From positions 3,587 through 67,586 of the forward strand of contig CAZWAK010000020.1 in assembly GCA_964631865.1 (NCBI GenBank): a stretch of 64,000 nt of DNA. The letters run 5' to 3'. The translations under genes and the position numbers were made by a program. Each line of letters starts with the position of its first letter. Positions within the stretch are counted from its first letter, which is position 1. A model generated the notes under the pieces. It was given only the letters and a program-made list of their open reading frames with translations. It was not told the origin of the DNA and did not search any database. Below, piece by piece: positions 171 to 53,927 of the stretch. The DNA comes from an uncultured Heliobacteriaceae bacterium. GTDB lineage: Bacteria > Acidobacteriota > Blastocatellia > RBC074.

Positions 171-262
171 CCATTTTCCATTCTCCATTTTTGATTTGTC
201 ATTGTGTTCCGGATTCCCGCCGCAATGACAAATGAGAAATGACAAGTGGAAAATGGAAAATG
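171..262. repeat. Inverted heptamer-repeat hairpin element (CCATTTT/TTTGTCA vs AATGACA/AAATGGA)
   Basis: Left arm 171-204, right arm 223-262. Perfect 11-bp core stem ATTTGTCATTG (194-204) / CAATGACAAAT (223-233). Confidence 0.85.
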
Positions 263-273
263 TCAGGATTCAA

Positions 274-1275
274 ATGGCTCAATCAGAAACGCAAATCCAG
301 GTAGAACACGCGACGCACAAAAGTGAACGGCAGCCGCGCTGGCGCGCGTTGGTTGCATCTGAATATCAAGTTTTGCTGCTCTGTCTGCTCTGGTTTCTCA
401 TCAGCCTGCCGTTCACGCCGGGACTGCTTTCGGCGGAAAACATCAGCAACATTTTCTCGAATCTTTTGCCGCTGCTGATTCTGGCGACGGGGCAAACGCT
501 CGTGCTGATTACGGGCGGCATTGATTTGTCGGTGACGTCGGTGATGGCGCTCAGCAGCGTGACGGGCGCAATGGTGATGAGTGGCGGCGAGGCGCGCGTG
601 ACGTTGCTCGGCGTAGCCGCGATGTTGCTCGTTGGCGCTGTCATAGGCCTGTGCAACGGGCTGGCGATCACGAAATTGCAAATGCCGCCGTTCATCGTCA
701 CGTTGACGGCGATGATGTTTTTCAGCGGTTTGGCAATCTGGCTGACGAAATCCAAAACGATTTACAACCTGCCGTCGTCGTTCAATGCCATCGGCAAAGG
801 CGCGTTGTGGTTCATCCCGTATGCGTTGCTCGTCACGGCGTTGCTCGTCGTCGCCGCGCACCTTCTGCTCACGCGCAGTCTGCTGGGGCGCTGGCTGTAT
901 GCGGTTGGATTGAACGTCAAAGCCGCGCGCATTTCCGGCGTGCCGGTTGAGCGCACGATGTTGGCGGCTTACATCCTCAGTGGTTTGTTCGCTGCTGTCG
1001 CGGCCATTTTGTACACCGGTCGTTTGGAAACCGGCTCGCCTGTGTTGGGGCAGCGGTTGTTGTTGGATGTCATCGGCGCAGCAGTCATCGGCGGCACAAG
1101 CCTGTTCGGCGGCAGAGGCAAAATCGCGTGGACGCTATACGGCGTGCTGTTTCTGACGCTGATTGATAACAGCCTAAACCTCGCCGGGCATTCGCATTTC
1201 ACGATCATGATGGTCAAAGGCAGCGTGATTTTGCTGGCGGCGTTGTTGGATGTGTTGCGGACGAAATTACGATGA
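274..1275 (+). CDS. Sugar ABC transporter permease (RbsC/BPD_transp_2 family)
   Basis: GQTLVLITGGIDLSV, AAVIGGTSLFGGRG motifs and multiple TM helices. Start moved to ATG 274 because the ORF-track start at 232 lies inside the repeat. Confidence 0.9.
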   Translation: MAQSETQIQVEHATHKSERQPRWRALVASEYQVLLLCLLWFLISLPFTPGLLSAENISNIFSNLLPLLILATGQTLVLITGGIDLSVTSVMALSSVTGAMVMSGGEARVTLLGVAAMLLVGAVIGLCNGLAITKLQMPPFIVTLTAMMFFSGLAIWLTKSKTIYNLPSSFNAIGKGALWFIPYALLVTALLVVAAHLLLTRSLLGRWLYAVGLNVKAARISGVPVERTMLAAYILSGLFAAVAAILYTGRLETGSPVLGQRLLLDVIGAAVIGGTSLFGGRGKIAWTLYGVLFLTLIDNSLNLAGHSHFTIMMVKGSVILLAALLDVLRTKLR

Positions 1276-2753
1276 ATCCTCTCCTGGAATGTTCTCAAAT
1301 TGAGAAGCGATATTTCGGCGTCTCCGTGTTGCGCGGCGTCAATCTGGCGCTCGCGCCGGGGCGTGTGCTGGGTTTGGTGGGGGAAAACGGCGCGGGCAAA
1401 TCCACGTTGATGAATATTCTGGGCGGCGTTGTGCCAGCGGATGGCGGCACAATGCGATTCGCAGGCGAAGCTTACACGCCGCAAACACCGGCTGATGCGA
1501 CGCGGCGCGGCGTGGCGTTTGTGCATCAGGAATTGAATCTCTTCACGAATTTGAGCATCGCGGAAAATCTGTTTCTGCCCTATCTGCCGCGCCGCAAAAC
1601 GATGCACACGAAAGCCGCCGAATTGCTGGCGGCGGTGAATCTCAACATCGCGCCGGACACGCTCGTGGAAAGCCTCTCGCCGGGCGAACGGCAGTTGGTC
1701 GAAATTGCGAAAGCGTTGGGGCAGGACGCGCGCTTGATGATTTTTGACGAACCGACAACTTCGTTGACGAGCCGCGAAACCGAGCGATTGTTTACGTTGA
1801 TCGAACGGCTGCGCGCGCAGGGCATCGCGGTGATTTATATCTCGCATGTGCTCGCAGACATCTTTCGCCTCTGCGATGAACTGTTGGTCTTGCGCGATGG
1901 CGAAGTCGTAGCGGCGGGCGGCAAAGACGAATTCACGCCGGAATCATTGATTACGTTGATGGTCGGGCGCAGCTTGTCGCAACTCTATCCGCCGCGACAA
2001 ATGAACCCGGCAAACGAAACCGCGCTCGCGGTCGAAGCCGTCTCGCAACCGGGCGTGCTGGAGGATGTCAGCTTCACGTTGCAACGTGGCGAAGTCCTGG
2101 GCATCGCAGGCTTGATGGGCGCGGGCCGCACCGAACTCGCGCGCGTTCTCTTCGGCCTTGATCCGTGTGCGCGCGGCAGTATCAAGCTGAACAGTGCAGA
2201 AATTCGGCATCGCTCGACGCGCGAACGCATTCAATTTGGCATGGCGTTGCTCACCGAAAACCGCCGCGAAGAAGGTTTGCTGATGGATGCCGGGATCGCC
2301 GACAACATCGCGCTGGCGGCGCTCGCAGGATTTACGAACAAAGGCTGGATCGCTTCGGCGCGGCTGAACGAAGCCGTGAGCGAAGCTGTCGCCGCTGTGC
2401 AAATCAAAGGTGCAAGCCGCGCGGAGCAAGCCGTGCGCACGCTCAGCGGCGGCAATCAACAAAAGGTCGTGCTGGCAAAATGGCTGCTGCAAAAACCGTC
2501 GGTCTTCATCCTCGACGAACCGACACGCGGCGTAGATGTCGGCGCGCGCGCGGAGATTTATCGCCTCATCAATCGGCTCACGGAACAAGGCGCGGGTGTG
2601 TTGTTCATTTCGTCCGAGATTGAAGAATTGATCGGGATGTGCGACCGCCTGCTGGTGATGCGACAAGGCACAATCACGGCGCATTTTGCGCGCGCGGAAT
2701 TTGACCGTGAACACATTCTGAGCGCGGCACTGCACGGAGGAACAAAGGTATGA
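1272..2753 (+). CDS. Sugar ABC transporter ATP-binding protein (RbsA/MglA type, two NBDs)
   Basis: Walker A GENGAGKST, LSPGERQ, second LSGGNQQK, DEPTRGVDVGA. ATGA overlap with the upstream gene. Confidence 0.95.
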   Translation: MNPLLECSQIEKRYFGVSVLRGVNLALAPGRVLGLVGENGAGKSTLMNILGGVVPADGGTMRFAGEAYTPQTPADATRRGVAFVHQELNLFTNLSIAENLFLPYLPRRKTMHTKAAELLAAVNLNIAPDTLVESLSPGERQLVEIAKALGQDARLMIFDEPTTSLTSRETERLFTLIERLRAQGIAVIYISHVLADIFRLCDELLVLRDGEVVAAGGKDEFTPESLITLMVGRSLSQLYPPRQMNPANETALAVEAVSQPGVLEDVSFTLQRGEVLGIAGLMGAGRTELARVLFGLDPCARGSIKLNSAEIRHRSTRERIQFGMALLTENRREEGLLMDAGIADNIALAALAGFTNKGWIASARLNEAVSEAVAAVQIKGASRAEQAVRTLSGGNQQKVVLAKWLLQKPSVFILDEPTRGVDVGARAEIYRLINRLTEQGAGVLFISSEIEELIGMCDRLLVMRQGTITAHFARAEFDREHILSAALHGGTKV

Positions 2754-3730
2754 CGCGCTCGCCAAGCTTTGTGCCTGCGTTGTTGCGCCACGCGCCATGG
2801 CTGTTGTTCATCGCCGTGCTCGCGGTTTTCAGTTTGCTTGCGCCGCGTTTTCTGGCGGGCAACAATTTCCTCAACATCCTCGTGCAATCCGCCGCGACGA
2901 CGATTGTGGCGACGGGAATGACGTTTGTGTTGCTCACGGCGGGCATTGATCTGTCGGTCGGTTCCGTGATGTTCGTCGCGGCGGCGTTGGCAGGCAAATT
3001 GGTCTTGAACGGGCAACCGTTGTGGCTGGCTTGCGGGGTGATTTTACTGACCGGCGTCTTGTATGGCGCAGTCAACGCGCTGTTCATTACGCGGCTGCGT
3101 GTCATCCCGTTCATTGTCACGCTGGCGACGCTGTATTTCGGGCGCGGCTTGGGATTGTGGATTACAGAAACGCGCGCGATGAATTTGCCGGATTCCATCT
3201 TGCGCATCGGCACGGCCAGCCTCGCAGGCATTCCGTTCCCTGCCTTGATGCTCGTAGTTGTCGTCGTCATCGCGCACATCGTGCTGACACGCACGTCGTT
3301 CGGTCGCCAGATTTATGCGCTCGGCAATGACGCCGATGCGGCGCGCAAGGCGGGCATTCGCGTCGGGCGCATTCAATTCGCCGTGTATGTCATCAGCGGC
3401 GGCTGCGCGGCGCTCGGCGGACTTGTCTCCATCGCGCAACTCGGCGCGGTCTCTCCAACGTTCGGCAATCAACGCGAATTTGCCGCGATTGCGGCGGCAG
3501 TGCTGGGCGGCGTGAGTTTGTTCGGCGGCAGAGGCGCGGTGTTGCCAGGGATATTGCTCGGCGCGTTGCTGATTCAAACGATTGAAAATGGTTTGGTGAT
3601 CGCCAACGCCGATCCGTACCTCTATCCGTTGGTGATGAGCGCAATCATCTTTGTGGCGGTGCTGGTCGACAGCTTGCGCAACCGGCAACTGCAACGCGCG
3701 CAACGCCGCAAGGTGCGCGCGGCGGCATAA
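2750..3730 (+). CDS. Sugar ABC transporter permease (RbsC family)
   Basis: GMTFVLLTAGIDLSVGS and AAVLGGVSLFGGRG motifs. Confidence 0.9.
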   Translation: MTRSPSFVPALLRHAPWLLFIAVLAVFSLLAPRFLAGNNFLNILVQSAATTIVATGMTFVLLTAGIDLSVGSVMFVAAALAGKLVLNGQPLWLACGVILLTGVLYGAVNALFITRLRVIPFIVTLATLYFGRGLGLWITETRAMNLPDSILRIGTASLAGIPFPALMLVVVVVIAHIVLTRTSFGRQIYALGNDADAARKAGIRVGRIQFAVYVISGGCAALGGLVSIAQLGAVSPTFGNQREFAAIAAAVLGGVSLFGGRGAVLPGILLGALLIQTIENGLVIANADPYLYPLVMSAIIFVAVLVDSLRNRQLQRAQRRKVRAAA

Positions 3731-5346: not shown

Positions 5347-6054
5347 ATGCCGGGAAAAAACCTGTTGTTTAGTTTGGTGTTGTCGGCTGGCTTGAGCGCG
5401 GTCGCCCCTGCTCAGGATTTCAGCAAATCGTTCAAGGTCTTGCCCGATTCCGGGTCGCTGGAAATCAAAACCAAAATGGGGTCGGTGACGGTCGTTCCAG
5501 CCGAAGGCAATACGATTCAAGTATTGGCCAGACGCGCGGGGAACAGCGTGACGGCGTCGCAACCTTCGCCGCAAGGCAAGGTTCATGTCGAAGTCACCAG
5601 TGACGCACCCGTTGACCTCATCGTCAATGTTCCATCCAGCACGTCTTTGGATGTGTTTTGTGTGAAATGTTCGGGCGGCGTGATCGTGCGCGGCTTGCGC
5701 GGAGCCATCAAGGTCAATAACACAGATGGTGACATTCAATTGACCGGGCTTCGCAGCTCGCAGGTCGAAGCCCGTAGCATGAGCGGGAACGTCAGCTACA
5801 GCGGTGAAGTGCTTCCCAGCGGCAGCTATTATCTGAAATCCTTTTCAGGTCGCGTGGACGCTGCCTTGCCAGCGGGAGCCAAATTCAAACTGGATGCGAC
5901 GTCTGGGCGTGGCGGCATTGAACTCGCGCCGGGCGAGTTTCAGTTAACCGTGCATAAGCAAACATCCCACTTAGTCCAGGGATTGGTAGAGTCAGCCACT
6001 GCGACCGTAACCTTATGGACGCAGGATGGCAGCATTCGAGTGCGTAAGAAATAA
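5347..6054 (+). CDS. Secreted DUF4097/adhesin-like beta-repeat protein
   Basis: Signal peptide and repeated beta motifs (GAIKVNNTDGDI, ARSMSGNV, LKSFSGRV, DATSGRGGI). Third gene of the sigma/anti-sigma operon. Confidence 0.7.
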   Translation: MPGKNLLFSLVLSAGLSAVAPAQDFSKSFKVLPDSGSLEIKTKMGSVTVVPAEGNTIQVLARRAGNSVTASQPSPQGKVHVEVTSDAPVDLIVNVPSSTSLDVFCVKCSGGVIVRGLRGAIKVNNTDGDIQLTGLRSSQVEARSMSGNVSYSGEVLPSGSYYLKSFSGRVDAALPAGAKFKLDATSGRGGIELAPGEFQLTVHKQTSHLVQGLVESATATVTLWTQDGSIRVRKK

Positions 6055-6057
6055 CAA

Positions 6058-6096
6058 AGCGTGTACGGCGGAACATCTTGCCCTGCCGTACACGCT
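6058..6096. terminator. Hairpin between convergent genes (probable bidirectional terminator)
   Basis: Perfect 12-bp IR AGCGTGTACGGC (6058-6069) / GCCGTACACGCT (6085-6096). Confidence 0.65.
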
Positions 6097-6120
6097 CTTT
6101 CGCTACTCTCTCTTTCGCCA

Positions 6121-8559
6121 TTATCCGCCCATCTGCGCCGCGACTTCCTGCATTCTTGCCTTGACGCCGCGGTACTGCACATCAATCGCATAAATTTCCG
6201 CGAACGTTTCGTAGGCGTCTTTGAATTCGCCCATCGCGGCGTACGCTTCGGCCAAATCGTACCGCAAGGCTTGATAGGCCCCCTCATCGCGCAGCGGAGC
6301 CTCCAGGGCTTTTTTGAGCCACACGACCGCCAGACGCGGCAGTCCTTTTTGTGCAAAGCAAAACGCAAGCATGTTGCAGCACGAAACATAATGCGTATGG
6401 GCTGGATCGCTCATAATCGCCTTGAACGCCTGTTGGAACTCTTCAATGGCCTCATCGAACATATCCATTTCCTTGTAGGCCAGCCCCAAATTGTAATGCG
6501 TGTCGAAGTCTTCCTGCGGGTTGTGCTGTTCGGTTTCTGCTTTGAATTCATCCAGGAAATCCAGCAACTCACCCATCTCGTCGCCGGCAAACAAATCGAA
6601 TGAATTACCGGCAGGAGAGGCCGATGGCGCGGGCGTGGATGGCGCTTCCGACCACGCGACGGCGGGCGTCTCGGACAATGAGTTTGTCGAGATGTTCGGC
6701 GTAGAATGGCGCGGTTGCGTCACGAGAATTGTCGCCTCTTCGGCGTCTTGGGCAGGCGGCGAAGCAAGGTAGCCGGTGGCAACGTCTTGCAAACCGAACG
6801 AACTCACGGCGGGCACTTCGGGAACGATTTGTACTTCCGTTGCCACGACCGCCTGGGAGTCCAGAGAAATCGCTTCGACGACGTCAATTTGTTGGTCGGG
6901 CGCAAGAACGGTTTGCGCGTTTTGGGCCTCCGCTTGTTGCAGTTGGGCCAATTTGGCTTTGACTTCAGGAGCCTGTGGATATTGTGCCGCAATGGATTCG
7001 AGCGTGTAGCGCGCCACATCCAGCATCCCTTGATACAGATAAAAATCTACGCTCTCCAACTCATCCCGCAAATTCGCTGTAGACGAACCGGCCACTGCGA
7101 CGTCCACGGCCTCCGGCACGACGCTGAAAGAAGGAACTTCCGTTTGCACTTCCATCGCCTGGTCAGACGAGTGTGCATCCCAGGCACCTTGCGGCTCAGT
7201 ACGCGACTCAGCCCCCTGAGTGGCCTCTTCCGCTAGAACGGAATAGCGAGAGACGTCGGCGGTCGCTTCGGGCTGCAACTCCTGGAAGGTTGAAGGCTCG
7301 TCTTCCGACTGATCCCAAAAATCCATGCCAGCGTTCGACGCGCTGGGACGTTCATACCCTGCCCCATACGATTCGGAGGGCGGCTCTGCCTCTTCTCCCA
7401 CCAATTGGCGCAACCGCCGTCGGTGTTGAATTTCATCCGGCTCCAATTCGAGCAGCCGTTTGAGGGCGCTGACGGCGGCGGGTTCGCTGCCCGTTTGTAG
7501 AGCGGCGTCTGTAAGCAAGTTGAGCGTCTCGACCAGCAAATGATCGTCGTGCGTGTGTTCATACACTGCCGCGAGCCGTGTCAGCGCGCCCAGATGTTGC
7601 GATTCGACGGCCAGGACATCGCGGAGCAATTGGGCGGCTTTTTCTTCTTCCCGATATTCGTACAGAATTTCCACGACCCGATCAAAGACGCGCAACGCGC
7701 CCATCGCATCGTGTCGCTGCACATAGGAATGACTGAGGTCTAACGCATACTGATAGCGTGAGCGCGCGGTGTGGAGCATTTTCTCAATCGTTGTCTCTGC
7801 CGCTTCCAGTTTCTGTGCCGACTGATAAATGCGCGCCAACAGCGTCAGCAACTCGGCGTCGTTTGGTCGTTCCTGCAGCAGCCCTTCGATCAACTCGACA
7901 GCGCTTCCGGTCTCTTCTCGTTCGAGGTACAAATTCACTGCCGAAGCCAGCGCCGCCTGTCCACGTGGCTGCGCTTTGATGGCGCGCAGATACGTTTGCA
8001 GCGCCTCCTGCTCTTTGTTTTGCCGCCGCATCTCGCCCGCCGCCAGCAGGAAGGTGTCGTACGCCTTGTCGTTTTGATTTTCGCGCAGGAACGCTTCGGC
8101 CAGCTTGATTTGCACAGCCGTGTTTTCAGGATCGAGGTCGGCAATTTTCTGATAAATCTCCAGCGCCTGTTGGCTCTGGCCTTCGCGGATGTAATGCTCT
8201 GCCACACTCAAGTATTGATGCCGTGCGTCTACGATCAATTTCTGCTGCGCATATAACCCCGCCAGCTTCAGCGACACGTTAATGTTGCCGCTGTCGAGTT
8301 TGCTGACCTTTTTCAGCATGGCGATGGCCTTGAGGTAAAAACCGCTGACCCGATAATGCTCGGCGATGTGCATGAAGCTGGCAATGGCTTCGCTCGTTTG
8401 CCCGACTTTCACGTACAAATCACCGAGTGTGTTGAGGGTGGTCACGTCGGAAGGATCGGCCTGCGCGATTTGGCGATATTCTTCAATCGCCGATTGATAT
8501 TTCCCTTGCTGAACGTATTTGGAGGCTGTCTTGAGTGCTTTGGCTTTATTGAATGACAT
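6121..8559 (-). CDS. Large TPR protein (N-terminal TPR array, acidic linker, C-terminal TPRs; SgmX-like architecture)
   Basis: Start MSFNKAKALK at ATG 8559. TPR repeats such as TLNTLGDLYVKVG and C-terminal THYNLGLAYKEMDMFDEAIEEFQQA. Confidence 0.85.
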   Translation of the reverse strand: MSFNKAKALKTASKYVQQGKYQSAIEEYRQIAQADPSDVTTLNTLGDLYVKVGQTSEAIASFMHIAEHYRVSGFYLKAIAMLKKVSKLDSGNINVSLKLAGLYAQQKLIVDARHQYLSVAEHYIREGQSQQALEIYQKIADLDPENTAVQIKLAEAFLRENQNDKAYDTFLLAAGEMRRQNKEQEALQTYLRAIKAQPRGQAALASAVNLYLEREETGSAVELIEGLLQERPNDAELLTLLARIYQSAQKLEAAETTIEKMLHTARSRYQYALDLSHSYVQRHDAMGALRVFDRVVEILYEYREEEKAAQLLRDVLAVESQHLGALTRLAAVYEHTHDDHLLVETLNLLTDAALQTGSEPAAVSALKRLLELEPDEIQHRRRLRQLVGEEAEPPSESYGAGYERPSASNAGMDFWDQSEDEPSTFQELQPEATADVSRYSVLAEEATQGAESRTEPQGAWDAHSSDQAMEVQTEVPSFSVVPEAVDVAVAGSSTANLRDELESVDFYLYQGMLDVARYTLESIAAQYPQAPEVKAKLAQLQQAEAQNAQTVLAPDQQIDVVEAISLDSQAVVATEVQIVPEVPAVSSFGLQDVATGYLASPPAQDAEEATILVTQPRHSTPNISTNSLSETPAVAWSEAPSTPAPSASPAGNSFDLFAGDEMGELLDFLDEFKAETEQHNPQEDFDTHYNLGLAYKEMDMFDEAIEEFQQAFKAIMSDPAHTHYVSCCNMLAFCFAQKGLPRLAVVWLKKALEAPLRDEGAYQALRYDLAEAYAAMGEFKDAYETFAEIYAIDVQYRGVKARMQEVAAQMGG

Positions 8560-8754
8560 CGGCTTCGCCTGCTTGGTTGAGAGGTTTGCTGGTGGGTTGA
8601 AATTTCGTAGGAACAAACGCGAGGCGGGACCAACCGCGCGCAACATAGCACTAGGCTCAACGCCTTGTCAATCTGAAGTTTTGAGCAGACGGTTGCAGAG
8701 TTGTGACAAGCCGATGAACAGGTCAAGTTGACTGAAAATCCAGCGCCGCAACGG

Positions 8755-9321
8755 TCATTTGACCGGGAACGACAGAGCCTTGAAGCCAGCGCCGCGTTTG
8801 AATTCCACACTCGTTTTGTGGTTGGCAGCTTTCAGCAGCACTTGATTGACTTGATCCTCGAACAGTTCAAAAAACACGCGCTGGCGGAGTTGCGTGCCCG
8901 CCAAGCCTTCCGGCAGTTTGGCTTCGACGTACAACAAGGCTACATCGGCTTTCGGCTCCATCCCAATCCACGTCAGTTTTTTGACTTGTCCGCGGCTGCC
9001 TTTGAGTTCGACGGTTTCGCGCAGATACATCGCGATCAACGCAGGCGCATCTTTGTGATCAAGCTTGACCGCTTTGCCGCGGCGTTGGCTGAGCGCGGCT
9101 TCTAAATCGTTGGCAAAGACGCGCACCGTGATTTCCGCCGTCTTTGCCGCCGCGTTGTATTCAATCTGCGTGAAGCTGACGTGAAATTTGTGGGCAGCGG
9201 CAGGGAAAAAAAGAAGAAGGGGCAGGGAAAAGGGGAGAAGATGAGACAGGAGATGCCGCCAAGCGATCTCCCTATCTCCCCGTCTCCCTTTCTCCCCCTC
9301 TCCCCTTCTCGCAAACTTCAT
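8755..9321 (-). CDS. Exported protein resembling DUF6702 family
   Basis: Signal peptide ending AAA, then HKFHVSFTQIEYN...ITVRVFANDLEAAL...FFELFEDQVNQV. Start placed at ATG 9321; the longer ORF to 9684 looks non-coding. Confidence 0.7.
   Translation of the reverse strand: MKFARRGEGEKGRRGDREIAWRHLLSHLLPFSLPLLLFFPAAAHKFHVSFTQIEYNAAAKTAEITVRVFANDLEAALSQRRGKAVKLDHKDAPALIAMYLRETVELKGSRGQVKKLTWIGMEPKADVALLYVEAKLPEGLAGTQLRQRVFFELFEDQVNQVLLKAANHKTSVEFKRGAGFKALSFPVK
9202..9310. repeat. Inverted octamer-repeat element (TCTCCCNN x5.5 vs purine-rich arm) inside a CDS 5' end
   Basis: 9267-9310 reads TCTCCCTA TCTCCCCG TCTCCCTT TCTCCCCC TCTCCCCT TCTC. A degenerate complementary GGGAGA-type arm lies at 9202-9253. 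Confidence 0.75.
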
Positions 9322-9567
9322 TACCAACCTCACTCCTGATTGCCGCCCGTAGGTGGTGGCGTTTTTTTCTCCGGCTGATTTCCGCTGGGATGCGCCTCTC
9401 TTCTTTTGTGCTGTCGCCGCCTTCAATCGCCGGATTATAGAGAAATTTTTTCGGTCGCGCGAGGCGGCGCGGGCTTGACTTAGGCGTAGGGAAGGAAAGT
9501 AAACTGACGCTATCATCTCGCGCGGAAGAGCAACTATCGAAACGGTCTCAGGATGGAGTAAGCCCCG

Positions 9568-9978
9568 ATGCAAACACTGGATTACAGATGTACGGACGCG
9601 GCGAAGATCGAAAGCTTTTACGAGGCGATAGATTTTCCGACGGAAGAAGAGTGGTTGGAGGTGCTGGAAATCAGCTTGCCGCAATCGCCCCGGCTGCCGC
9701 CGACCACCTCAGCGGCAGTGAATGCGACGTCGCGCGATTTGGCCCAGCACTGGCAGAATCTGAATGGTCTGACGTCGCCGCCACTGCGCCCGGAAAAGGA
9801 CGAGCATTATCTGGCGTCATGGCTCGAAGACCCGGTGTCGCATCGAGCCATGACGGTCGAGCCGGACTTTCTCGCGGCGCTGGTTACATTTTTGATGGAG
9901 CGTCTGACCTTGCGCCTGCACGAAGTTTCGGACGTGCAGTGCCAACTGATGGAGGAGTTGGCAAAGCTCAAACGCTGA
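9568..9978 (+). CDS. Hypothetical protein
   Basis: 136-aa ORF with genome-like codon usage, co-oriented 30 bp upstream of the ferritin-like gene. No motif recognised. Confidence 0.6.
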   Translation: MQTLDYRCTDAAKIESFYEAIDFPTEEEWLEVLEISLPQSPRLPPTTSAAVNATSRDLAQHWQNLNGLTSPPLRPEKDEHYLASWLEDPVSHRAMTVEPDFLAALVTFLMERLTLRLHEVSDVQCQLMEELAKLKR

Positions 9979-10008
9979 CCCGCTTTTTTAATTACGGAGT
10001 ACACAACG

Positions 10009-10446
10009 ATGGCAAACGAGCAATTACTGGCGGCGCTGAACGAGGTGTTGGCGATGGAATACGGCGCGGTCATTCAATACGCGCAGCATCATTTTCTGGT
10101 GCGCGGACACGACCGGATTTTGTTTGGAAATTTCTTTGCCACCAATAGCCAGGAAGCCCATCTGCACGCGCTCAACTTGGGCAACAAGATTGTGGCGCTT
10201 GGCGGCGTGCCCACCATCAAGCCTGTGCCCGCGCAGGAAGCGGCGCACTTGCACGACATGCTGCTCCAGGATTTGGCCATGGAACGCCGCGCGTTGGCCG
10301 CGTACACGCAAGCGTGGGAGTTGGCGGCAGAACATCAATCGTTGCGGTTTTGGTTGGAAGACATCATCCGCCTCGAACAATTGCACGTCGAAGAGTTGGA
10401 ACGGCTCACCGATGAACAAGCCGCCAAAGCCAACACGACGGCTTGA
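10009..10446 (+). CDS. Ferritin-like (bacterioferritin/Dps-fold) di-iron protein
   Basis: LNEVLAMEYGAVIQY, EAHLHA..LGNKIVALGGVP, DLAMERRALAAY, EQLHVEEL (ExxH ligands). GGAG RBS. Confidence 0.85.
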   Translation: MANEQLLAALNEVLAMEYGAVIQYAQHHFLVRGHDRILFGNFFATNSQEAHLHALNLGNKIVALGGVPTIKPVPAQEAAHLHDMLLQDLAMERRALAAYTQAWELAAEHQSLRFWLEDIIRLEQLHVEELERLTDEQAAKANTTA

Positions 10447-10487
10447 AGTAACCACACCGAACGCCACCGCTGAGTGCGCAGACCACT

Positions 10488-11015
10488 ATGATTGCCGAGC
10501 GTATCAAATTCGACCCGCTTCCCCTGACCCGCGAGCAAACGCTGACGGCGCTGTTTGCCGAAGAGGCGCAGGTGGAGGAGTTCATCGCGCGTCTCGGCGC
10601 ATTGGGAATTGCCACCCAGGCGGTCACGGTCATCGGCGTGGCGCTGGGAGAACCGCCGAAACGGCTCAACCTGACGGCCAAGCCCCCCAACCTCTCTCGC
10701 TACACGAAAAAGGGCGGCATCATAGGCATCCTCGTCGCCTTGTTGCTGGGCGCGATTTTGTACGGCACAAATTTTTTGCATCTTTCGTTGCTCGAAGCCT
10801 TGTTGATTCACACGCTCGCGCTCGTCATTCTCGGCAGTGTGATCGGAGCCGCCATTGGCGCGATTCTGGCTTCCGTCCAAGCGCAGGACACCGTGACGAC
10901 CTTGCCGCCACAAAACACCGAAGGCTTTCTGGTCACCAGCAAAATGTCGGTGCTTTTGGTGCCGCAAGGCGAAGCCCTCGCCCGTGCTGCCGGAGCCAAA
11001 AAGGTGATCTCCTGA
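10488..11015 (+). CDS. Two-TM membrane protein of unknown function
   Basis: Gly-rich TM hairpin (GGIIGILVALLLGAIL; GSVIGAAIGAIL) flanked by small soluble segments. Confidence 0.7.
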   Translation: MIAERIKFDPLPLTREQTLTALFAEEAQVEEFIARLGALGIATQAVTVIGVALGEPPKRLNLTAKPPNLSRYTKKGGIIGILVALLLGAILYGTNFLHLSLLEALLIHTLALVILGSVIGAAIGAILASVQAQDTVTTLPPQNTEGFLVTSKMSVLLVPQGEALARAAGAKKVIS

Positions 11016-11117
11016 CCGCCACAACGCGCCCTCCCTCCATTTGTCAAATGCCCGCGTTTCGAGTACCGTTGTCGCGGACTGCCCAAATAATTGAAGAGTG
11101 TGCGGAATTGAGATGTA

Positions 11118-11212
11118 CATTCTTCCTTCTTCATTCTTTACTCTTCATTCTTTTCGAGAAAAAAAGAAACCCTCTCGTCAGGAAGGAAGAAGGAAGAAGG
11201 AAGAAGAAAATG
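11118..11212. repeat. Inverted heptamer-repeat element (TTCTTCM vs GGAAGAA)
   Basis: Left arm 11118-11154, right arm 11181-11212 (GGAAGGAAGAAGGAAGAAGGAAGAAG). Confidence 0.75.
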
Positions 11213-11353
11213 CCTGATTTTACAGGCTTTCCATTCCGCCCACTCTGCAAATAATTGATAGCGCAAACGTTCAGTTTGCGTTGCGGCGCGAACAAATTCC
11301 TAAGTGACGCAACAAGGCAAACTGACCGTTTGCGCTACCCCTCTCCCAAACCT

Positions 11354-12271
11354 ATGAACACCTCTCGTCGTGATCTACTCAAATTTCTCGCCAGCAGTTG
11401 TGTGGCCGCGAGCGTGCCGACCTTCAGCGCCGCCGCGAAAACACCGCGTATTCGCTGGGCACAAGGCTATTTGCTCTGGCGCGGTTTCAAAGGCGCGCAA
11501 CTCACGTTGCAAGACGCGCTCAACGATCTACAAGCCATCGGAGCCGACGGCATAGAGTTTTCGCCGCAAGGCAGCGAACTCGAACGCAATAGCCTGACGA
11601 CGGCAACGTTCAAGCAATTGATGGCCGAGAAAAAGCTGGCGATTGCGGGCAATTACCTGAGCGCACCGTTTTACGATCTGGCCAAACGCGAAGAGATTTT
11701 GCAGGAGGCAAACAAACGCTTTGCCTTGCTGAAAGAATTCGGCGGCAAGAACATCATCATCGGCCCGCCCGGCGTGCTCGGCACGGTGGATCGCCCGCAA
11801 CTCATCAAACAACAAGCGCCGCTGCTCAACGAAATTGGTAAGCGCGCAAAAGATCAGGGGTTGGAAATTGGCATTCATCCGCATCTGAACACGTTGGTGG
11901 AAACGCCTGCGGAAATTGATTTGGCGATGGCAACGACCGATCCGCGTTACGTGCATTTTTCGGCGGACACGGGTCACATTCATTTGGCGGGCGGTGATGT
12001 CCCAGCGATTTTGCGCAAGTACAAAACGCGGCTGAATTATTTTCACTTCAAAGACGGTGTGCGTCCGTTTGTGCGCCCGAATTTCCAACCAAACTTGCGC
12101 GAATTAGGCCGAGGCGAAGTGAATTTCCCAGCGATTATGAGGCTGCTGAAAGAAATTCGCTTCACCGGTTGGATCAACATCGAGCAAGACACCACAACGC
12201 TCACACCACAGGAATCCAGCCGCATCAGCATGGAATATGTGACCAAAACGCTGAAGCCGATTTATACGTGA
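11354..12271 (+). CDS. Tat-exported sugar-phosphate isomerase/epimerase (AP_endonuc_2 TIM barrel, IolE-like)
   Basis: Tat motif SRRDLLK. Metal-binding motifs IHPH, DTGH, HFKD, ELGRG and IEQD. Start at ATG 11354. Confidence 0.85.
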   Translation: MNTSRRDLLKFLASSCVAASVPTFSAAAKTPRIRWAQGYLLWRGFKGAQLTLQDALNDLQAIGADGIEFSPQGSELERNSLTTATFKQLMAEKKLAIAGNYLSAPFYDLAKREEILQEANKRFALLKEFGGKNIIIGPPGVLGTVDRPQLIKQQAPLLNEIGKRAKDQGLEIGIHPHLNTLVETPAEIDLAMATTDPRYVHFSADTGHIHLAGGDVPAILRKYKTRLNYFHFKDGVRPFVRPNFQPNLRELGRGEVNFPAIMRLLKEIRFTGWINIEQDTTTLTPQESSRISMEYVTKTLKPIYT

Positions 12272-12275
12272 AGAG

Positions 12276-12383
12276 GGTGGCCGGTGATCGGTGGCTGGTG
12301 GCCGGTTCTCTCATAGATCAGTGATAGGTGATCGTGAGCCAAAGGTTTACTACCGACCACCGATCACCGGCCACCGACCACCG
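12276..12383. repeat. Inverted heptamer-repeat element (GGTGRYY x4 vs ACCGRYC x4) between convergent genes
   Basis: 12276-12306 GGTGGCC GGTGATC GGTGGCT GGTGGCC GGT. 12352-12383 ACCGACC ACCGATC ACCGGCC ACCGACC ACCG. Confidence 0.9.
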
Positions 12384-13731
12384 TCTGCGTTCCCGGTTTG
12401 AAGTCGAAGATCGCAACGGACACAGCTAAATCGCGCTTGTTCACGAAATGCGTGAAGATCGGAACGACGCGCCCGCCGTACGCATCAATGCCGTTGTAAT
12501 CGCCGAAGAAAACGCCTTTGTTGCACTCGAACGGCGCGAGGTTGATTTTGTGATTGACGAACGTTTTGCCCCCGTCAATGCTGCGTGCGAGTGTCACGCC
12601 CGTCTTTGTGCCATCCAAATCGCGGCGATCATAAAACACAATGTTGACCGCGCCATCCACGGGATCAACCGCCATCCACGTGAAGAATTGATCCTTGCCG
12701 TTTTTCAGCTTGTCATTGTTCACGCGCACGGCTTCCGACCACGTCACGCCACCATCGCGTGAGGCCATCACAAACACATCGTGATCGCCGTTGCGCGCGT
12801 CTACCCAATTCACATACAGCGTGCCGTGATGAGGGCCGTTGCTCGTGTCCACTTTGGTCACAGGCATGCCGTTCGCGCGACTGATGCCGGGAATGTCAAT
12901 GTCCCAACCGCCGGGCATCGCCGCGATGATTTTGTCGTTGCCAAACGTCGCGCCGCCATCGAGCGATTTGTCGAAGTACAAACCTTTCGGCCCCGCCCAC
13001 ACCAAATAGACTTCGCCTTTCACGCCGCTGGCGGCAATCGCGCCTTCCATCGTGTTGTCGCCGTCTTCGCAATCGCCCGTCGTGTCCGCGACTTCAAACG
13101 GCGGCGCAAACGTTTTGCCGCCATCGCTCGAACTGGAAAAGTAAATGTGCGAGCGATGCTGCGCGTCCTTGCTGCCATAAACATCAAAGCGCGTCCACGC
13201 CAAATAAATATTGTTCTTGTGCGGCGAGCCGAAGACGTTGTCGGTCACGATGTACGGCTTGTCTTCAAACGGCGTGACCGAATTGACGTGGTCAATCACT
13301 GCGACCGGAGCCGCCCATTCGTGACCGCCATCGCGCGATGCACTGACCCATATCCCGCTGAAGGCGCGCGGCGGGCGTTTGACGCGAATGCCATCGAACG
13401 ACATGTAGCAGTGATACGCGACGCCTTCGCTGCTGAACGCAATCGAATCATCGCCTTGTGGCAAGCTGCGTTCGTTCGGTGCGAAGACCGTCGTCCAGGT
13501 TTTGCCGCCGTCGTGCGTGACATACCGCGCATTGCTCACGCGCGCCTGCCCCGGTTTGCCGTACTGCAACGACACGCCGATGAGGTTGTCAGGATTGGTC
13601 GGATTGATCGCGATGGAAACTTCGCTTGGGTTGATCGCGTCTTTTTCCGTGATTTGAATGACGCGATGCGTTTGTGCCAACAGCGGGAGAGAAAGAGCCA
13701 AAAATAAGAGCAGCCCAACGCGACAATTCAT
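12364..13731 (-). CDS. Secreted BNR/Asp-box repeat (sialidase-like beta-propeller) protein
   Basis: Signal peptide and multiple SxDGGxTW/F boxes (THDGGKTW, SRDGGHEW, SSDGGKTF, SLDGGATF, SRDGGVTW, SIDGGKTF). Confidence 0.85.
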   Translation of the reverse strand: MNCRVGLLLFLALSLPLLAQTHRVIQITEKDAINPSEVSIAINPTNPDNLIGVSLQYGKPGQARVSNARYVTHDGGKTWTTVFAPNERSLPQGDDSIAFSSEGVAYHCYMSFDGIRVKRPPRAFSGIWVSASRDGGHEWAAPVAVIDHVNSVTPFEDKPYIVTDNVFGSPHKNNIYLAWTRFDVYGSKDAQHRSHIYFSSSSDGGKTFAPPFEVADTTGDCEDGDNTMEGAIAASGVKGEVYLVWAGPKGLYFDKSLDGGATFGNDKIIAAMPGGWDIDIPGISRANGMPVTKVDTSNGPHHGTLYVNWVDARNGDHDVFVMASRDGGVTWSEAVRVNNDKLKNGKDQFFTWMAVDPVDGAVNIVFYDRRDLDGTKTGVTLARSIDGGKTFVNHKINLAPFECNKGVFFGDYNGIDAYGGRVVPIFTHFVNKRDLAVSVAIFDFKPGTQTVVGGR

Positions 13732-14490: not shown

Positions 14491-14493
14491 AAC

Positions 14494-15135: not shown

Positions 15136-15200
15136 AAAATGCAGTATACAATGGCGTATGCGATAATGCCCGCCGAAAAATTTACGGAGCAGAAAGCCGC

Positions 15201-17078: not shown

Positions 17079-17083
17079 AGTGA

Positions 17084-41395: not shown

Positions 41396-41455
41396 TCCGT
41401 CGTCAGTTGGTTTCCAGACGAGGGCTACTGGCAACTGACAACGGACAACGGACAA
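41384..41455. repeat. Inverted heptamer-repeat element (GTCCGTY vs CAACGGA)
   Basis: GTCCGTCGTCAGTTG (41395-41409) pairs with CAACTGACAACGGAC (41432-41446). Contains the lipB stop and ends 2 nt before ATG 41458. Confidence 0.8.
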
Positions 41456-41457
41456 TC

Positions 41458-42756
41458 ATGCCCAATAAATTCAAACTCTCCCTGACACATCAAATCTTCA
41501 TCGGGCTGGGGCTTGGCATTCTGATCGGCGCGATGATTCATTACCTTTTTGACAGCAACCCACACGCCAAAGAACAAGCTATTCAATGGGTGCGCGTGCT
41601 GAGCCGCATCTTCCTGAGCCTCATCAAACTCATCATCGCCCCGCTGATTTTCTCGACGCTCGTCGTCGGCATCGCGGGCGCGGGCAGCATCAAAGCCGTC
41701 GGGCGCATCGGGATGAAGGCGATGGCCTATTTCACGTTTGCGACAATGTTGGCGCTCGTGATCGGCTTAGTTGCCGTCAACATCACACGTCCCGGCGATG
41801 GCGTGAATCTGCCGAACGAACAAAGCGCCGAAGCCAAAGAGATCGCCGAACGCGCAGGCAAAATGACGCCACAGGATCACATCGTCACGATCTTTCCGAC
41901 CAGCATCATCAAAGCGATGGCCGACAACGAAGTGTTGCAGATCGTCGTGTTCAGTTTGCTGTTTGCCGTCGCAGTCGCAGGCATCGGCGAGAAAGGCCGC
42001 CCGATGGTCGCGTGGTGCGAATCGTTGTCGGAGGCGATGTTCAAGTTCACGGCGTATGTCATGAACTTCGCGCCCTGGGGCGTGGGCGCGGCAATGGCCG
42101 TCACGGTCGGCAACAAAGGCTTGGGCGTGCTCATCAACTTGGGCAATATGATCCTGACGTTGTATGCCGCGTTGGCCGTGTTCATCCTGATCGTGCTCGT
42201 GCCCATCGCCTTCCTCATTCGCCTGCCCTTCAAACGCTTCTTCCAACTCGTCAAAGAACCCGCGATGCTGGCGTTCACGACGACGTCGAGCGAATCGGCG
42301 TTTCCCAAAGCACTCGAAAACATGGAACGCTTAGGCGTGCCGCGTCGCATCGTGAGTTTTATTTTGCCGCTCGGTTACAGCTTCAATCTCGACGGCTCGA
42401 CGTTGTATTTATCGCTGGCCGCGATGTTCGTTGCGCAAGCCGCCAACAAACCGCTTTCGATCTCGCAGCAAATCATTATGCTGTTGACGCTGATGCTTTC
42501 GACCAAAGGCATCGCCGCCGTGCCGCGCGCGTCGTTAGTCGTGTTGGCTGGCACGCTCGCGCAATTCGATTTGCCGCTCGAAGGCATTGCAGTGATTCTC
42601 GGCGTTGACGAATTGATGGATATGGCGCGCACGGCAACGAATGTGATCGGCAATTGTTTGGCGACGGCGGTGGTCGCGCGCTGGGAAGGCGAATTCAACG
42701 ATGCGGGTAATGAGGTTGTGGCCCCCATTGATCCTGCGACCGTTTCGCATCATTAA
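41458..42756 (+). CDS. Dicarboxylate/amino acid:cation symporter (GltP/DAACS family)
   Basis: IFLSLIKLIIAPLIFSTLV, AFTTTSSE, GYSFNLDGS, DMARTATNVIGN. Confidence 0.93.
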   Translation: MPNKFKLSLTHQIFIGLGLGILIGAMIHYLFDSNPHAKEQAIQWVRVLSRIFLSLIKLIIAPLIFSTLVVGIAGAGSIKAVGRIGMKAMAYFTFATMLALVIGLVAVNITRPGDGVNLPNEQSAEAKEIAERAGKMTPQDHIVTIFPTSIIKAMADNEVLQIVVFSLLFAVAVAGIGEKGRPMVAWCESLSEAMFKFTAYVMNFAPWGVGAAMAVTVGNKGLGVLINLGNMILTLYAALAVFILIVLVPIAFLIRLPFKRFFQLVKEPAMLAFTTTSSESAFPKALENMERLGVPRRIVSFILPLGYSFNLDGSTLYLSLAAMFVAQAANKPLSISQQIIMLLTLMLSTKGIAAVPRASLVVLAGTLAQFDLPLEGIAVILGVDELMDMARTATNVIGNCLATAVVARWEGEFNDAGNEVVAPIDPATVSHH

Positions 42757-42781: not shown

Positions 42782-42876
42782 AACCACGAAGAAACGAAGA
42801 GCACGAAGAGGAGAAGCGCAGAATTTATTGAACTTTCTGTGGCTCCTTCGTGTTCTTTGTGATCTTCGTGGTGAAA
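42782..42876. repeat. Inverted nonamer-repeat element, copy 2 (opposite orientation to copy 1)
   Basis: 42850-42876 is the exact 27-nt reverse complement of 25549-25575. 42797-42808 matches the reverse complement of 25610-25621. Confidence 0.85.
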
Positions 42877-46307: not shown

Positions 46308-46874
46308 ATGGTTATGACTACGATAGCTCGACGTTGGACATCAGCGGATTTGGCGATGTTGCCGGACGACAACAATCGCTACGAGATCATTGCCGGCGAG
46401 TTGTATGTTTCTGGCCTGCCGCATTACGCGCACCAACGAGCCTGCACTAACATCTGTGGCTTGCTCGGAGAGTTTTCGCGGCAAACCAAGCTGGGCGAAC
46501 CAGTCTACGGACGGGGAATTCTTTTTGCCGAAGATGAAGAAGTGATTCCTGACATTGCTTGGGTAAGTCGCCAACGACGCAGCGAGATTTTGGGCGCGGA
46601 CGGGCATTTTCACGGTGCGCCCGAATTAACGATTGAAGTGCTTGCCTATTCAGACGCAGACGTGCAACGCGACCGTGAGGCGAAGCTCAACCTCTATGCG
46701 CGGCGCGGCGTGGATGAATACTGGATCGTGGATTGGAAAGCTCAGCAGGTCGAAGTTTATCGGCGCGTTGCGTCTGTGCTGGAACTGGTCGCCACATTGA
46801 GTGCCACAGAGACATTAACCTCGCCTCGGCTGCCCGGCTTTAGTTGTCTTGTCGGGGAAATATTCGAGGACTGA
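46308..46874 (+). CDS. Uma2 family PD-(D/E)XK endonuclease-like protein
   Basis: NRYEIIAGEL, IPDIAW, PELTIEV, DREAKLNLYARRGVDEYWIVD. Confidence 0.88.
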   Translation: MVMTTIARRWTSADLAMLPDDNNRYEIIAGELYVSGLPHYAHQRACTNICGLLGEFSRQTKLGEPVYGRGILFAEDEEVIPDIAWVSRQRRSEILGADGHFHGAPELTIEVLAYSDADVQRDREAKLNLYARRGVDEYWIVDWKAQQVEVYRRVASVLELVATLSATETLTSPRLPGFSCLVGEIFED

Positions 46875-47120: not shown

Positions 47121-47121
47121 A

Positions 47122-47216
47122 GTAGACGGTAGACAGTAGACGGTAGACAGTAGGCGGTAGAAGAGCTATCGCGTGACATCGAACTACCGACTACCGTCTA
47201 CCGTCTACCGTCTACT
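47122..47216. repeat. Empty inverted heptamer element (GTAGACR x5.5 vs CTACCGT x4.5)
   Basis: Arms 47122-47160 and 47184-47215 around a 23-nt core. Same heptamer as the flanks of the four-helix-bundle gene. Confidence 0.92.
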
Positions 47217-53324: not shown

Positions 53325-53335
53325 GCTTTGCTGGA

Positions 53336-53434
53336 GTAGACGGTAGACGGTAGACGGTAGGTTTAGGCACCAGGTTCCATTGCGCTGCGCGAGCGTGCGA
53401 TCAATCGCCAGCGCAATGGGACGGTAGACGGTAG
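53336..53434. repeat. Left arm of four-helix-bundle element: GTAGACG array, including a 37-bp direct duplication
   Basis: GTAGACG x3.5 at 53336-53360. 53346-53382 is identical to 53420-53456. Confidence 0.9.
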
Positions 53435-53466
53435 GTTTAGGCACCAGGTTCCATTGGGGAGAAATT

Positions 53467-53838
53467 ATGTCGCCGGCAAAAACATTTCAGGACTTGGAGG
53501 TTTGGAAGTTGGCACATCAGTTTGTGTTGAGTATTTACAAACTGACGGAAGGACTGCCGAAGCACGAAATGTTTGGGTTGACCTCGCAGTTACGTCGAGC
53601 GGCGGTTTCCGTTCCGGCGAATATTGCCGAAGGTTTCAAAAAGCGAACTCCTGCGGACAAGGCAAAGTTCTATAACATCTCGCAAGGCTCACTAGAAGAA
53701 TGCCGTTATTACCTGATCCTGATCCACGATCTTCAATATGCAGAAACCCCTCAGTTGCAAGATGAAGTAGATCGAATAGCCCGTGTTCTCGATTCCTATT
53801 TGAAAGCGATGTTAGAAGGATTTGCGACCTCTCGATAA
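53467..53838 (+). CDS. Four helix bundle protein (23S rRNA IVP / Avd-like family)
   Basis: FQDLEVWKLAH, LPKHEMFGLTSQLRRAAVSVPANIAEG, FYNISQGSLEECRYYLIL..DLQY. Confidence 0.95.
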   Translation: MSPAKTFQDLEVWKLAHQFVLSIYKLTEGLPKHEMFGLTSQLRRAAVSVPANIAEGFKKRTPADKAKFYNISQGSLEECRYYLILIHDLQYAETPQLQDEVDRIARVLDSYLKAMLEGFATSR

Positions 53839-53841
53839 CAA

Positions 53842-53927
53842 CTACCGTCTACCGTCTACCGTCTACCGTCTACCGTCTACTGTCTACTGTCTACCGTCTA
53901 CCGTCTACCGTCTACTGTCTACTGTCT
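53842..53927. repeat. Right arm: CTACYGT x12 tandem array, reverse complement of left arm
   Basis: 12 complete heptamers at 53842-53925, ending 3 nt before ATG 53929. Confidence 0.95.

Follow-up and report, generated by a model that had tools for sequence, protein, structure and literature searches.

The 64-kb window considered here, meaning the whole stretch of 64,000 nucleotides that was analysed, is an ordinary piece of the chromosome of a bacterium of the Blastocatellia (Acidobacteriota) that is known from biofilter metagenomes. Its spacers contain a family of hairpins, the arms of which are tandem arrays of short units, most of them 7 nt long. On balance, these elements probably represent a family of palindromic selfish DNA elements that resemble the intervening sequences (IVSs) of 23S rRNA or the doublets of repetitive extragenic palindromes (REPs) that form hairpins (REPINs), with both gene-carrying and gene-less copies. 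The full-length form carries a gene of the TIGR02436/PF05635 four-helix-bundle family in its loop, together with its own Shine-Dalgarno sequence, and has one copy in the window, at 53336-53927. The 5' arm of the elements is generally rich in G or in purines and the 3' arm is its complement, both being built of tandem 7-nt or occasionally 8-9-nt units.

An earlier note on this DNA had listed the hairpins and had proposed a test of the excess of period 7 and of paired inverted arms against shuffled controls. Tandem Repeats Finder (TRF) and searches for inverted repeats reproduce each of the listed elements. The number of non-redundant period-7 arrays found by TRF in the window was 17, against a mean of 1.43 and a maximum of 4 in 30 dinucleotide-preserving shuffles of the same DNA. 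A scan for periodic runs gave 10 strong runs of period 7 and 0-1 for other periods from 4 to 15, save the multiple 14. Ten of the elements are two-armed hairpins of a single common architecture, and almost all of the longest inverted repeats in the window are these hairpins. The free energies (dG) of their RNA folds range from -22 to -64 kcal/mol, and the z-scores relative to shuffled sequences from -4.1 to -12.4. The note's view that most of them have period 7 holds, with period 8-9 in those at 9202-9310, 25549-25637 and 42782-42876, and the arrays at 23820-23851 and 35419-35450 are truly one-armed, as it had said. The supposed two-unit remnant at 19228-19241 (TCAGACT twice), on which TRF is silent, was left out of the elements, as chance alone would give about four exact 2 x 7 duplications in 64 kb (64000/4^7, or ~3.9).

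The same organization is seen in related DNA, for which 72 loci (0.97 Mb) around the dctA homologue were taken from species-representative genomes, mostly of Blastocatellia and other Acidobacteriota. Period 7 is the dominant period that is not a multiple of three in these loci (132 arrays). Among 115 arrays of at least 2.8 copies in the window and the 0.97 Mb, 73 have an inverted partner within 700 nt and 2 a direct one. The location at gene boundaries noted earlier was also borne out, with 5.4 arrays per 10 kb outside open reading frames (ORFs) versus 0.4 per 10 kb inside them, a 13-fold difference. The arms typically abut the upstream stop codon and the downstream ATG, and the spacer is usually filled exactly by the element, from the stop codon (or a few codons earlier) to the next ATG. 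The typical arm has 4-5 unit copies (range 2-18). Main stems pair over 31 bases at the median (range 15-159). Loops have a median length of 10 nt, and those of the gene-less hairpins in the window measure 4-60 nt.

The gene-carrying element begins with a 5' arm, AGTAGAC(GGTAGAC)2.6, at 53335-53361. This is followed on the plus strand by a leader (53361-53466) with an internal duplication and a GGGAGA Shine-Dalgarno sequence before the ATG, by the gene itself (53467-53838, plus strand, 123 aa, TIGR02436), and by a 3' arm at 53842-53927, (CTACCGT/CTACTGT)12.3, which has a TRF score of 144 and ends 1 nt before the next ATG. Within the leader, 53420-53456 repeats 53346-53382 (37 nt, consisting of the arm end and leader) around a small hairpin, CCATTGCGCTG...CAGCGCAATGG. 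The leader is conserved without the 37-nt duplication in the cassette loci L153 and L158, and the duplication resembles what a small insertion would leave if it came with a long duplication of its target. In the RNA fold of 53330-53930 (dG -227 kcal/mol, z -5.6) the outer arms pair over 27 bp, and the 3' arm pairs with both the outer 5' array and the inner array of the leader. The GC content at third codon positions of the gene is 0.49, versus 0.68-0.72 in the neighbouring genes.

Two proteins from other metagenomes, with 94% and 90% identity to that of the window, are encoded in unrelated gene neighbourhoods, one between two ClpB-like AAA+ genes and the other between an AAA_22 ATPase and a DAO oxidoreductase gene. 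Both genes share the flanks of the window copy, AGTAGAC(GGTAGAC)n upstream and CAA(CTACCGT)nCTACT after the stop codon, and both cassettes share a 30-nt leader with GGAGAG before the ATG. The upstream and downstream arms have 4.5/3.5 and 9.5/4 copies in the two relatives, versus 3.5(+2.3)/12 in the window. Since the flanks are the same at different loci and the copy numbers differ, the arms form one mobile unit with the gene and change in length by slippage. Thus slippage, which the earlier note had suggested, does contribute, and the purely local origin of the arms that it implies does not agree with whole hairpin-plus-gene cassettes at unrelated loci. The termini of the cassette are defined and symmetrical, AGTAGAC ... 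GTCTACT, in four copies.

The window protein is a member of the TIGR02436/PF05635 family, and its own predicted structure matches the pentameric proteins 2GSC and 2RLD and, after these, Avd. It scores 118 bits against TIGR02436 (cut-off 24, E 2.2e-34), PF05635 is precomputed for all of its close homologues, and it matches PDB entry 2GSC by sequence with an E-value of 1.5e-18. The AlphaFold2 (AF2) model has four helices with a mean confidence (pLDDT) of 95. Foldseek aligned this model with template-modelling (TM) scores of 0.85 to 2GSC, 0.76 to 2RLD, and 0.73 both to Avd (4DWL) and to the ribonucleoprotein of a diversity-generating retroelement (DGR), 8UB7. The score against the Avd model NF033474, 22.7 bits, is below its cut-off of 80. 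The family of TIGR02436/PF05635 homologues comprises at least 7,991 clusters at E<=1e-10. PADLOC gave no match for the window protein, and exact-protein look-up of this protein and of P0003 found no record.

A link between the four-helix-bundle gene and the repeats, the protein being a candidate trans factor in the earlier note, was supported in a set of 80 metagenomic loci from many environments, obtained by a scan with an alignment of 30 four-helix-bundle sequences and having 55-68% identity. TRF places a period-7 array on at least one side of 55 of the 66 testable genes, and on both sides of 28. There are 111 arrays within 350 nt of four-helix-bundle genes and 12 in the remaining 146 kb, or ~13 versus 0.8 per 10 kb. 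When the upstream flank was aligned with the reverse-complemented downstream flank, a period-7 array gave the best alignment in about 49 of 77 testable loci, and at a strict threshold 29 of 81 four-helix-bundle genes pass versus 2 of 124 other ORFs from the same loci. The polarity is nearly fixed, with purine-rich upstream arrays in 41/43 and pyrimidine-rich downstream arrays in 44/45. The gene is co-directional with its neighbours in 66-76%, about as for any bacterial gene pair, so that there is no evidence for its dependence on read-through transcription.

Cultured organisms have the same arrangement. In Nostoc punctiforme (pNPUN02), Trichormus variabilis (plasmid C) and Aulosira laxa, (TCAGGAG/TCAGAAT)n stands directly before the ATG and its complement directly after the stop codon. 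In Riemerella anatipestifer the four-helix-bundle gene is flanked by (GGTTTAA)n ... (TTAAACC)n. On a plasmid of Picosynechococcus sp. PCC 7003 (L162, NZ_CP016476.1 126170-127293), a type III-B CRISPR operon has the cassette with its arms inserted between its cas10/cmr2 and cmr3 genes. A search of the retrieved loci for the exact pattern CACGAAGANNCACGAAGA gave no match.

The units are different from one another, as the earlier note had stated. They are not unrelated, and the proposal that the arms are generated regardless of sequence was not upheld. With the best rotation and strand chosen for each unit and shuffled-letter units as the control, the gene-flanking units of the metagenomic loci (AGGAGTC, AGAATTC, AGGAGAC, AGAAGCC and AGTAGTC among them) give a consensus R-A-K-N-C-A-G with 7.5 bits versus 3.8 for shuffled units. 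The gene-less units give a weak but real common consensus, ~CAGnnGT, with 4.45 bits versus 3.40 shuffled (maximum 3.64). The chirality of a palindrome reads the same from either strand. Of the 50 gene-less elements, 42 have a purine-rich 5' arm (p = 1e-6), and the richness of this arm in G is independent of strand. The base totals over gene-less 5' arms are A 348, C 222, G 701 and T 549. A mirrored order of unit variants between the two arms, which would point to templated correction between them or to a recent inverted duplication, was detected in 0 of 23 elements at p<=0.05, in a test of low power. Unmirrored order suggests that the arms act as independent arrays of one unit, contrary to continual correction of one arm by the other.

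Many of the units are also dispersed in the source metagenomes. The window stretch has a depth of ~10-13x in the biofilter metagenome runs, and arm depth, which is read from metagenome contigs to which other genomes may contribute, is 4-90 times baseline. Every tested unit type but one is multi-copy at the depth of this genome, which is a second point against purely local generation. Many different flanks adjoin the GTAGACG arm, and contigs of genome depth join two GTAGACG arms over unrelated fillers of 5-29 nt. These contigs are further gene-less copies. The 3' arm of the gene-carrying element (53842-53927) reaches a depth of ~1,100 versus ~12, the GAGAATG arm of 40622-40735 a depth of 517 versus 13.7, and the ACCGACC arm of 12276-12383 a depth of 55-73 versus a baseline of 11-13. 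The CATTCTT arm of 11118-11212 recurs on ~5 other contigs and the AATCTCA array of 23820-23851 on at least 6 others, all at genome-like depth, and the arm of 9202-9310 likewise recurs on other contigs of such depth. In the biofilter metagenomes, contigs with the 5' arm of 42782-42876 reach depths of 6,000-19,000, compared with ~13 for the genome, and show dozens of distinct flanks. The depth of its relative at 25549-25637 is barely raised.

If the elements are mobile palindromes of this kind, the gene-less hairpins would be non-autonomous relatives of the gene-carrying form, by analogy with REPINs and the REP-associated tyrosine transposases (RAYTs) or with miniature inverted-repeat transposable elements (MITEs) and insertion sequences. 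Their arms would grow and shrink through slippage. Stems of 25-45 bp, once transcribed, may be cut by RNase III as the stems of the 23S IVSs are. An insertion in a transcribed spacer or an rRNA loop would then do no harm, whether its stem is removed or just cut. The association and the fold suggest that the pentameric protein may bind the heptamer arrays and help to maintain or spread them, and an arm of 4-5 units beside a pentamer invites the thought that one unit could be bound per subunit.

A number of observations weigh against this explanation. Three gene-less elements of the window (171, 11118 and 40622) have the pyrimidine-first chirality, and they are not derivable from the cassette form because inversion cannot change chirality. 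The element at 47122-47216 is the only gene-less one in the window that shares its unit with a gene-carrying copy, and 41384-41455 is taken as single-copy because its arm depth equals baseline. In 1.03 Mb of Acidobacteriota DNA there is one four-helix-bundle gene versus ~50 two-armed hairpins, and the 0.97 Mb of related loci have no second such gene. No transposase, integrase, reverse transcriptase (RT) or RAYT was found among the scanned ORFs of the window, the rest of the genome not having been searched; the check for an RT proposed by the earlier note was thus negative for these ORFs. No target-site duplication (TSD) is visible at the four insertion sites, though terminal inverted repeats (TIRs) are present. 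Mobility is consequently deduced from distribution and not from mechanism, and other genomes may be counted in the depth figures used for multiplicity.

The elements could instead be functional hairpins that evolved in place as terminators or attenuators, stabilisers of mRNA ends or coupling devices that sequester start sites, with slippage and selection for pairing producing the heptamers and the gene being a secondary invader that prefers loops. This is unlikely in our judgement, though orthologous spacers speak for it. The spacer between sucB and lipB in ~45 acidobacterial genomes nearly always has a hairpin, exactly from stop codon to ATG, and the stem differs, being (CATTCTC)5 in the window and composed of AAAAGCG, TTCAGTT, AGGTGTC, AGGAGAT, GGTGGTT, CAAAAGG, CAGGTGT or a 9-mer in others. 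Some units drift between relatives (AGGTGTC, AGGTTGT, GGTGGTT). Ordinary GC-rich stems with T-runs occupy the spacer in some lineages, and in a few it is 8-37 nt long with no stem. The junction between lipB and dctA is alike, with hairpins of other units in many relatives (one with 18-copy arms), none in others, and a first arm that begins within the last codons of lipB. Change in place certainly occurs, as related units among relatives show (AGATGTC, AGATGCT, AGGTGTC), and the diverging units and ordinary hairpins at both junctions suit evolution in place at least as well as repeated insertion, which has to be set against the elements being mobile. The single-copy state of 41384-41455 and the purine-rich sequence that several 3' arms put right before the ATG can be added on the same side. 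Against it, 8% each of co-directional, convergent and divergent spacers hold an array, so that no preference for any spacer type, as a sign of terminators or promoters, is seen. Most elements lack a U-tract, and an assignment to intrinsic (Rho-independent) terminators was dropped on the absence of T-runs from most elements and their equal frequency in divergent spacers. An excess of G:U pairs on the sense strand, which would be a sign of selection at the RNA level, was absent from 29 co-directional elements (68 sense versus 65 antisense, summed by hand). Equal frequency among spacer types and the lack of G:U bias indicate that the elements behave as DNA-level insertions tolerated outside coding sequence, and every test able to distinguish a function of the RNA from an element that acts as DNA favoured the latter. 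Recurrence of unit types at several loci of the same genome, the clustering of arrays at the four-helix-bundle gene in diverse metagenomes and the joint movement of arms and gene are also difficult to reconcile with evolution in place.

Two further explanations retain mobility or synthesis of the arms and differ in the agent. The elements may be of the REP/REPIN type and moved by a tyrosine (HUH/Y1) transposase, either a RAYT or a TIR-associated tyrosine transposase (TIRYT), encoded elsewhere, with the four-helix-bundle gene as a passenger; this is improbable. GTAGACG, the unit of the largest family, contains GTAG and its complement starts with CGTC, and this unit family thus holds both of the tags by which the REP super-families are defined. 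TIRYTs have been reported in Acidobacteria (PMC3733652), and dispersed intergenic palindromes with one gene in inverted repeats have a REPtron-like layout (PMC3116915). A RAYT or TIRYT origin is possible for the GTAGACG family and not for most other units, most of which hold neither tag (GAGAATG, AATCTCA, ACCGACC, TTTGTCA, AGGAGTC and AGAATTC are examples). The search of the window ORFs mentioned above, which did not extend to the rest of the genome, found no gene of the IS200/IS605 type, and the repeat-flanked gene is consistently PF05635 across phyla. Templated synthesis of the repeats, in which both 3' ends of a break are extended with G-rich heptamers by a polymerase or RT, perhaps with help from the Avd-like protein, and are then joined across a short filler, was also suggested in the earlier note and is very improbable. 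Extension of both 3' ends with one unit would give the geometry found in 42 of 50 elements, with the G-rich arm 5' on both strands. It would also suit the unmirrored order of variants, the unequal copy numbers of the two arms and the copies in which the same arms enclose unrelated loops, and the closest functional relative of the protein is Avd, the RT cofactor of DGRs. On the other hand, the variant-order test had low power and a minority of elements have the opposite chirality. This model was rated low because the cassette has defined, symmetrical termini, as expected for a cut-or-copy element, and because a candidate polymerase is lacking, with no RT in the window.

The S23p/IVS four-helix-bundle protein has been known since the early 1990s and its structures have been solved. 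Like the 23S IVSs of Leptospira, Coxiella burnetii, Xanthomonas and Brucella, the gene-carrying element has a PF05635 ORF in the loop of a long inverted-repeat stem, and versions without an ORF occur in both. In the 23S IVS of C. burnetii, the stem that encloses the S23p ORF has 2-3 GACAGAT heptamers, the number varies among strains, and RNase III cuts at the first repeat (PMC4990558). Rotation of GACAGAT gives AGATGAC, in line with the R-A-K-N-C-A-G pattern. Unlike the 23S IVSs, the window elements lie between protein-coding genes and not in an rRNA helix, and Rfam at gathering thresholds detected no rRNA or other family anywhere in the window. They are also multi-copy, with many unit types per genome and most copies lacking an ORF. 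A look for RNA sequencing runs with this organism found none. The four-helix-bundle IVS protein is still described as functionally uncharacterised (bioRxiv 10.1101/2024.02.27.582315). As in REP/REPIN-RAYT systems, palindromes are dispersed between genes, a rare gene lies in inverted repeats and gene-less hairpins far outnumber genes (PMC3116915, PMC3733652). The differences are that the flanked gene encodes a 123-aa helical bundle without HUH or tyrosine motifs, that the arms are tandem heptamers of variable copy number and that several unit families coexist.

Direct repeats of heptamers with unexplained function have been reported, namely TAACTGA in Beggiatoaceae, Cyanobacteria and Bacteroidetes (PMC4679880) and others in Nostoc 7120 (bioRxiv 10.1101/2022.06.06.494920), and neither study connects the heptamers to a PF05635 gene. 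The window elements resemble these and the short tandemly repeated repetitive (STRR) sequences in having tandem 7-nt intergenic units that often end beside a start codon, with the same phyletic flavour. They are tandem heptanucleotide intergenic arrays as the cyanobacterial STRR sequences are, a likeness of architecture. The complement of TAACTGA, TCAGTTA, fits the CAG-phased pattern of the window units. In published descriptions of the STRR and TAACTGA repeats, a single unit or a small number of fixed units is repeated directly, in contrast to the inverted pairs of many units found here. The Correia/NEMIS and ERIC-type (enterobacterial repetitive intergenic consensus) MITEs are short palindromic insertions that are co-transcribed with flanking genes and form RNA hairpins that are substrates of nucleases (in part from the background given in PMC3733652). 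The elements of the window are likewise short intergenic palindromes, and differ in that those MITEs have fixed TIRs and a TSD, whereas here the TIRs are tandem arrays and no TSD is visible. The window protein is predicted to have the pentameric four-helix-bundle fold of the DGR protein Avd, and it differs in falling below the Avd cut-off and in having no RT, template repeat (TR) or variable repeat (VR) nearby. Assignment of the elements to DGRs was dropped in the absence of an RT or a TR/VR pair. CRISPR arrays were dropped as there are no spacers, and integron attC sites because the arms are complementary to each other and not each self-complementary.

In the literature consulted, Elhai et al. 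(2008) on small dispersed repeats within the heptamer arrays of Nostoc not included, there appears to be no description of a general link of PF05635 genes with inverted heptamer arrays, or of gene-less derivatives in Acidobacteriota. This link ties together two old puzzles, the role of the S23p/IVS protein and the presence of tandem heptamers in the intergenic DNA of cyanobacteria, Beggiatoaceae, Bacteroidota and Acidobacteriota, given that across phyla the gene sits in a heptamer-armed hairpin with a common consensus and fixed polarity and that gene-less hairpins are dispersed in the same genome. Binding of the protein to the arrays, processing by RNase III and mobility are hypotheses that are testable in culturable carriers such as Nostoc, Trichormus and Bacteroides. 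A bolder proposal, to which we give little credence, is that the PF05635 pentamer is the dedicated trans factor of an unrecognised class of mobile palindromes, the arms of which are laid or maintained by templated end addition, the protein acting in an Avd-like manner with a polymerase or RT. If true, one system would explain the 23S rRNA IVSs, the cyanobacterial STRR and Beggiatoaceae TAACTGA heptamers and the hairpins of Acidobacteriota. In practical terms, the hairpins break short-read assemblies, create spurious ORFs, and as cassettes can split operons, as with cmr2/cmr3 in Picosynechococcus.

The gene content of the window is of a housekeeping kind and includes a sugar ABC transporter, sucB (E2), lipB, lipA, lpdA and dctA paralogues, together with a TonB-type barrel, cytochromes and an RNase II-type nuclease. 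The DctA-type transporter has 93% identity to homologues in metagenome-assembled genomes of Blastocatellia. The hairpin at 171-262 lies between a stop codon (167-169) and a sugar-ABC permease gene. Its arms, at ~171-204 and 223-256, consist of the units CCATTYT/TTTGTCA and their complement AATGACA/TGGAAAA (inverted repeat I4, 34 nt, 82% complementary), with an RNA dG of -44.0 and a z-score of -10.4. The period-8 hairpin at 9202-9310 (I17/I18, TRF 5.6 copies) has a purine-rich 5' arm, GGGGAGAAGATGAGACAGGAGAT, and a 3' arm of (ATCTCCCC)n, with a dG of -47.9 on the plus and -57.2 on the minus strand, and is directly upstream of a minus-strand DUF6702 gene. At 11118-11212, (CATTCTT)5 ... (GAAGGAA)3.6 (I19/I23, dG -32, z -4.8) terminates at an ATG. 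Two long ORFs, 8755-9684 on the minus and 10124-11254 on the plus strand, traverse these hairpins, and the parts within the hairpins are probably artefacts. Only residues 160-295 of the former match a family (DUF6702) and the latter matches none; heptamer arrays can be free of in-frame stop codons and thereby lead to overlong ORF predictions. The 11118-11212 hairpin is directly followed by a non-periodic inverted repeat at 11259-11337 with 30-nt arms (TAGCGCAAACGTTCAGTTTGCG...) that are 87% complementary, and this repeat lies at, or in front of, the true start of an IolE-like gene. The hairpin at 12276-12383, (GGTGGCC)4.4 ... (ACCGACC)4.6, lies in a convergent spacer (I11/I15, dG -64.4, z -7.7).

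The one-armed array at 23820-23851, (AATCTCA)4.6 with a TRF score of 57, ends 5 nt before an ATG and no inverted partner was found for it. The other, at 35419-35450, has an AATYTCA unit as in the former and ends 3 nt before the ATG of a histidine kinase gene. The hairpin between the sucB stop codon and the lipB ATG (40622-40735) has the structure AAAAGC(ATTCTCN)5 ... (NGAGAAT)5GCTTTT. Its arms pair over 38 nt with 89% complementarity (I1) or, with a shift of one unit, over 26 nt with 100% (I6), and its dG is -61.7 with a z-score of -12.4. Upstream of it, 38939-39603 holds a 357-nt tandem duplication with 83% identity, which is a duplicated lipoyl domain of E2 (SucB) with Ala/Pro-rich linkers. 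Such a duplication is ordinary for the E2 family. The hairpin at 41384-41455 (I20) overlaps the last codons and stop codon of lipB and stops 2 nt short of the ATG of a gene for a DctA/GltP-type transporter. One low-depth contig of the run X5 skips 84 nt (41373-41458), exactly the lipB-dctA hairpin, and may, as a weak indication at a depth of 2 and with a shorter side of 22 nt, come from a co-occurring element-free strain.

The hairpins at 42782-42876 and 25549-25637 stand apart as a class whose unit, CACGAAGA(A), has a period of 8-9. The former is located between two DctA/GltP-type genes (dG -50.3, z -10.7). The latter, of the CACRAAGAA class, is its reverse-complement relative (dG -33.3, minus strand). 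Similar TTTCTTCG/CACGAAGAA arrays are found in the related loci L032, L041 and L052. In L055 (for example at 7874-7999) and L057 (for example at 17830-17957), from more distant Acidobacteriota, arms of GTGCTGA, GGGGTCA and CAGTGGT enclose a conserved inner inverted repeat, GAGTTCAAGCTTTAGCTTGC ... GCAAGCTAAAGCTTGAACTC, a palindrome of fixed sequence inside hairpins with variable arms. The element at 47122-47216 is a gene-less copy of the gene-carrying element, with matching unit and termini (AGTAGACGG ... CCGTCTACT), no ORF, a 22-nt loop and 34-nt arms that are 91% complementary (I2, dG -55/-59). Directly upstream of it and of a small ferredoxin-like ORF is a gene for a putative endonuclease of the Uma2 family (PF05685) at 46308-46874, which matches the PADLOC candidate PDC-S03. 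The Uma2 family is typically highly paralogous. Beyond the gene-carrying element, a 40-nt unit, CTGCGGTGTGGCGCGATTTGCCAAATCGCGTTACGAACCC, is repeated in 4 head-to-tail copies directly after a stop codon (55215-55373). These copies are not CRISPR-like because there are no spacers, and each has an 8-bp palindrome, GCGATTTG/CAAATCGC.

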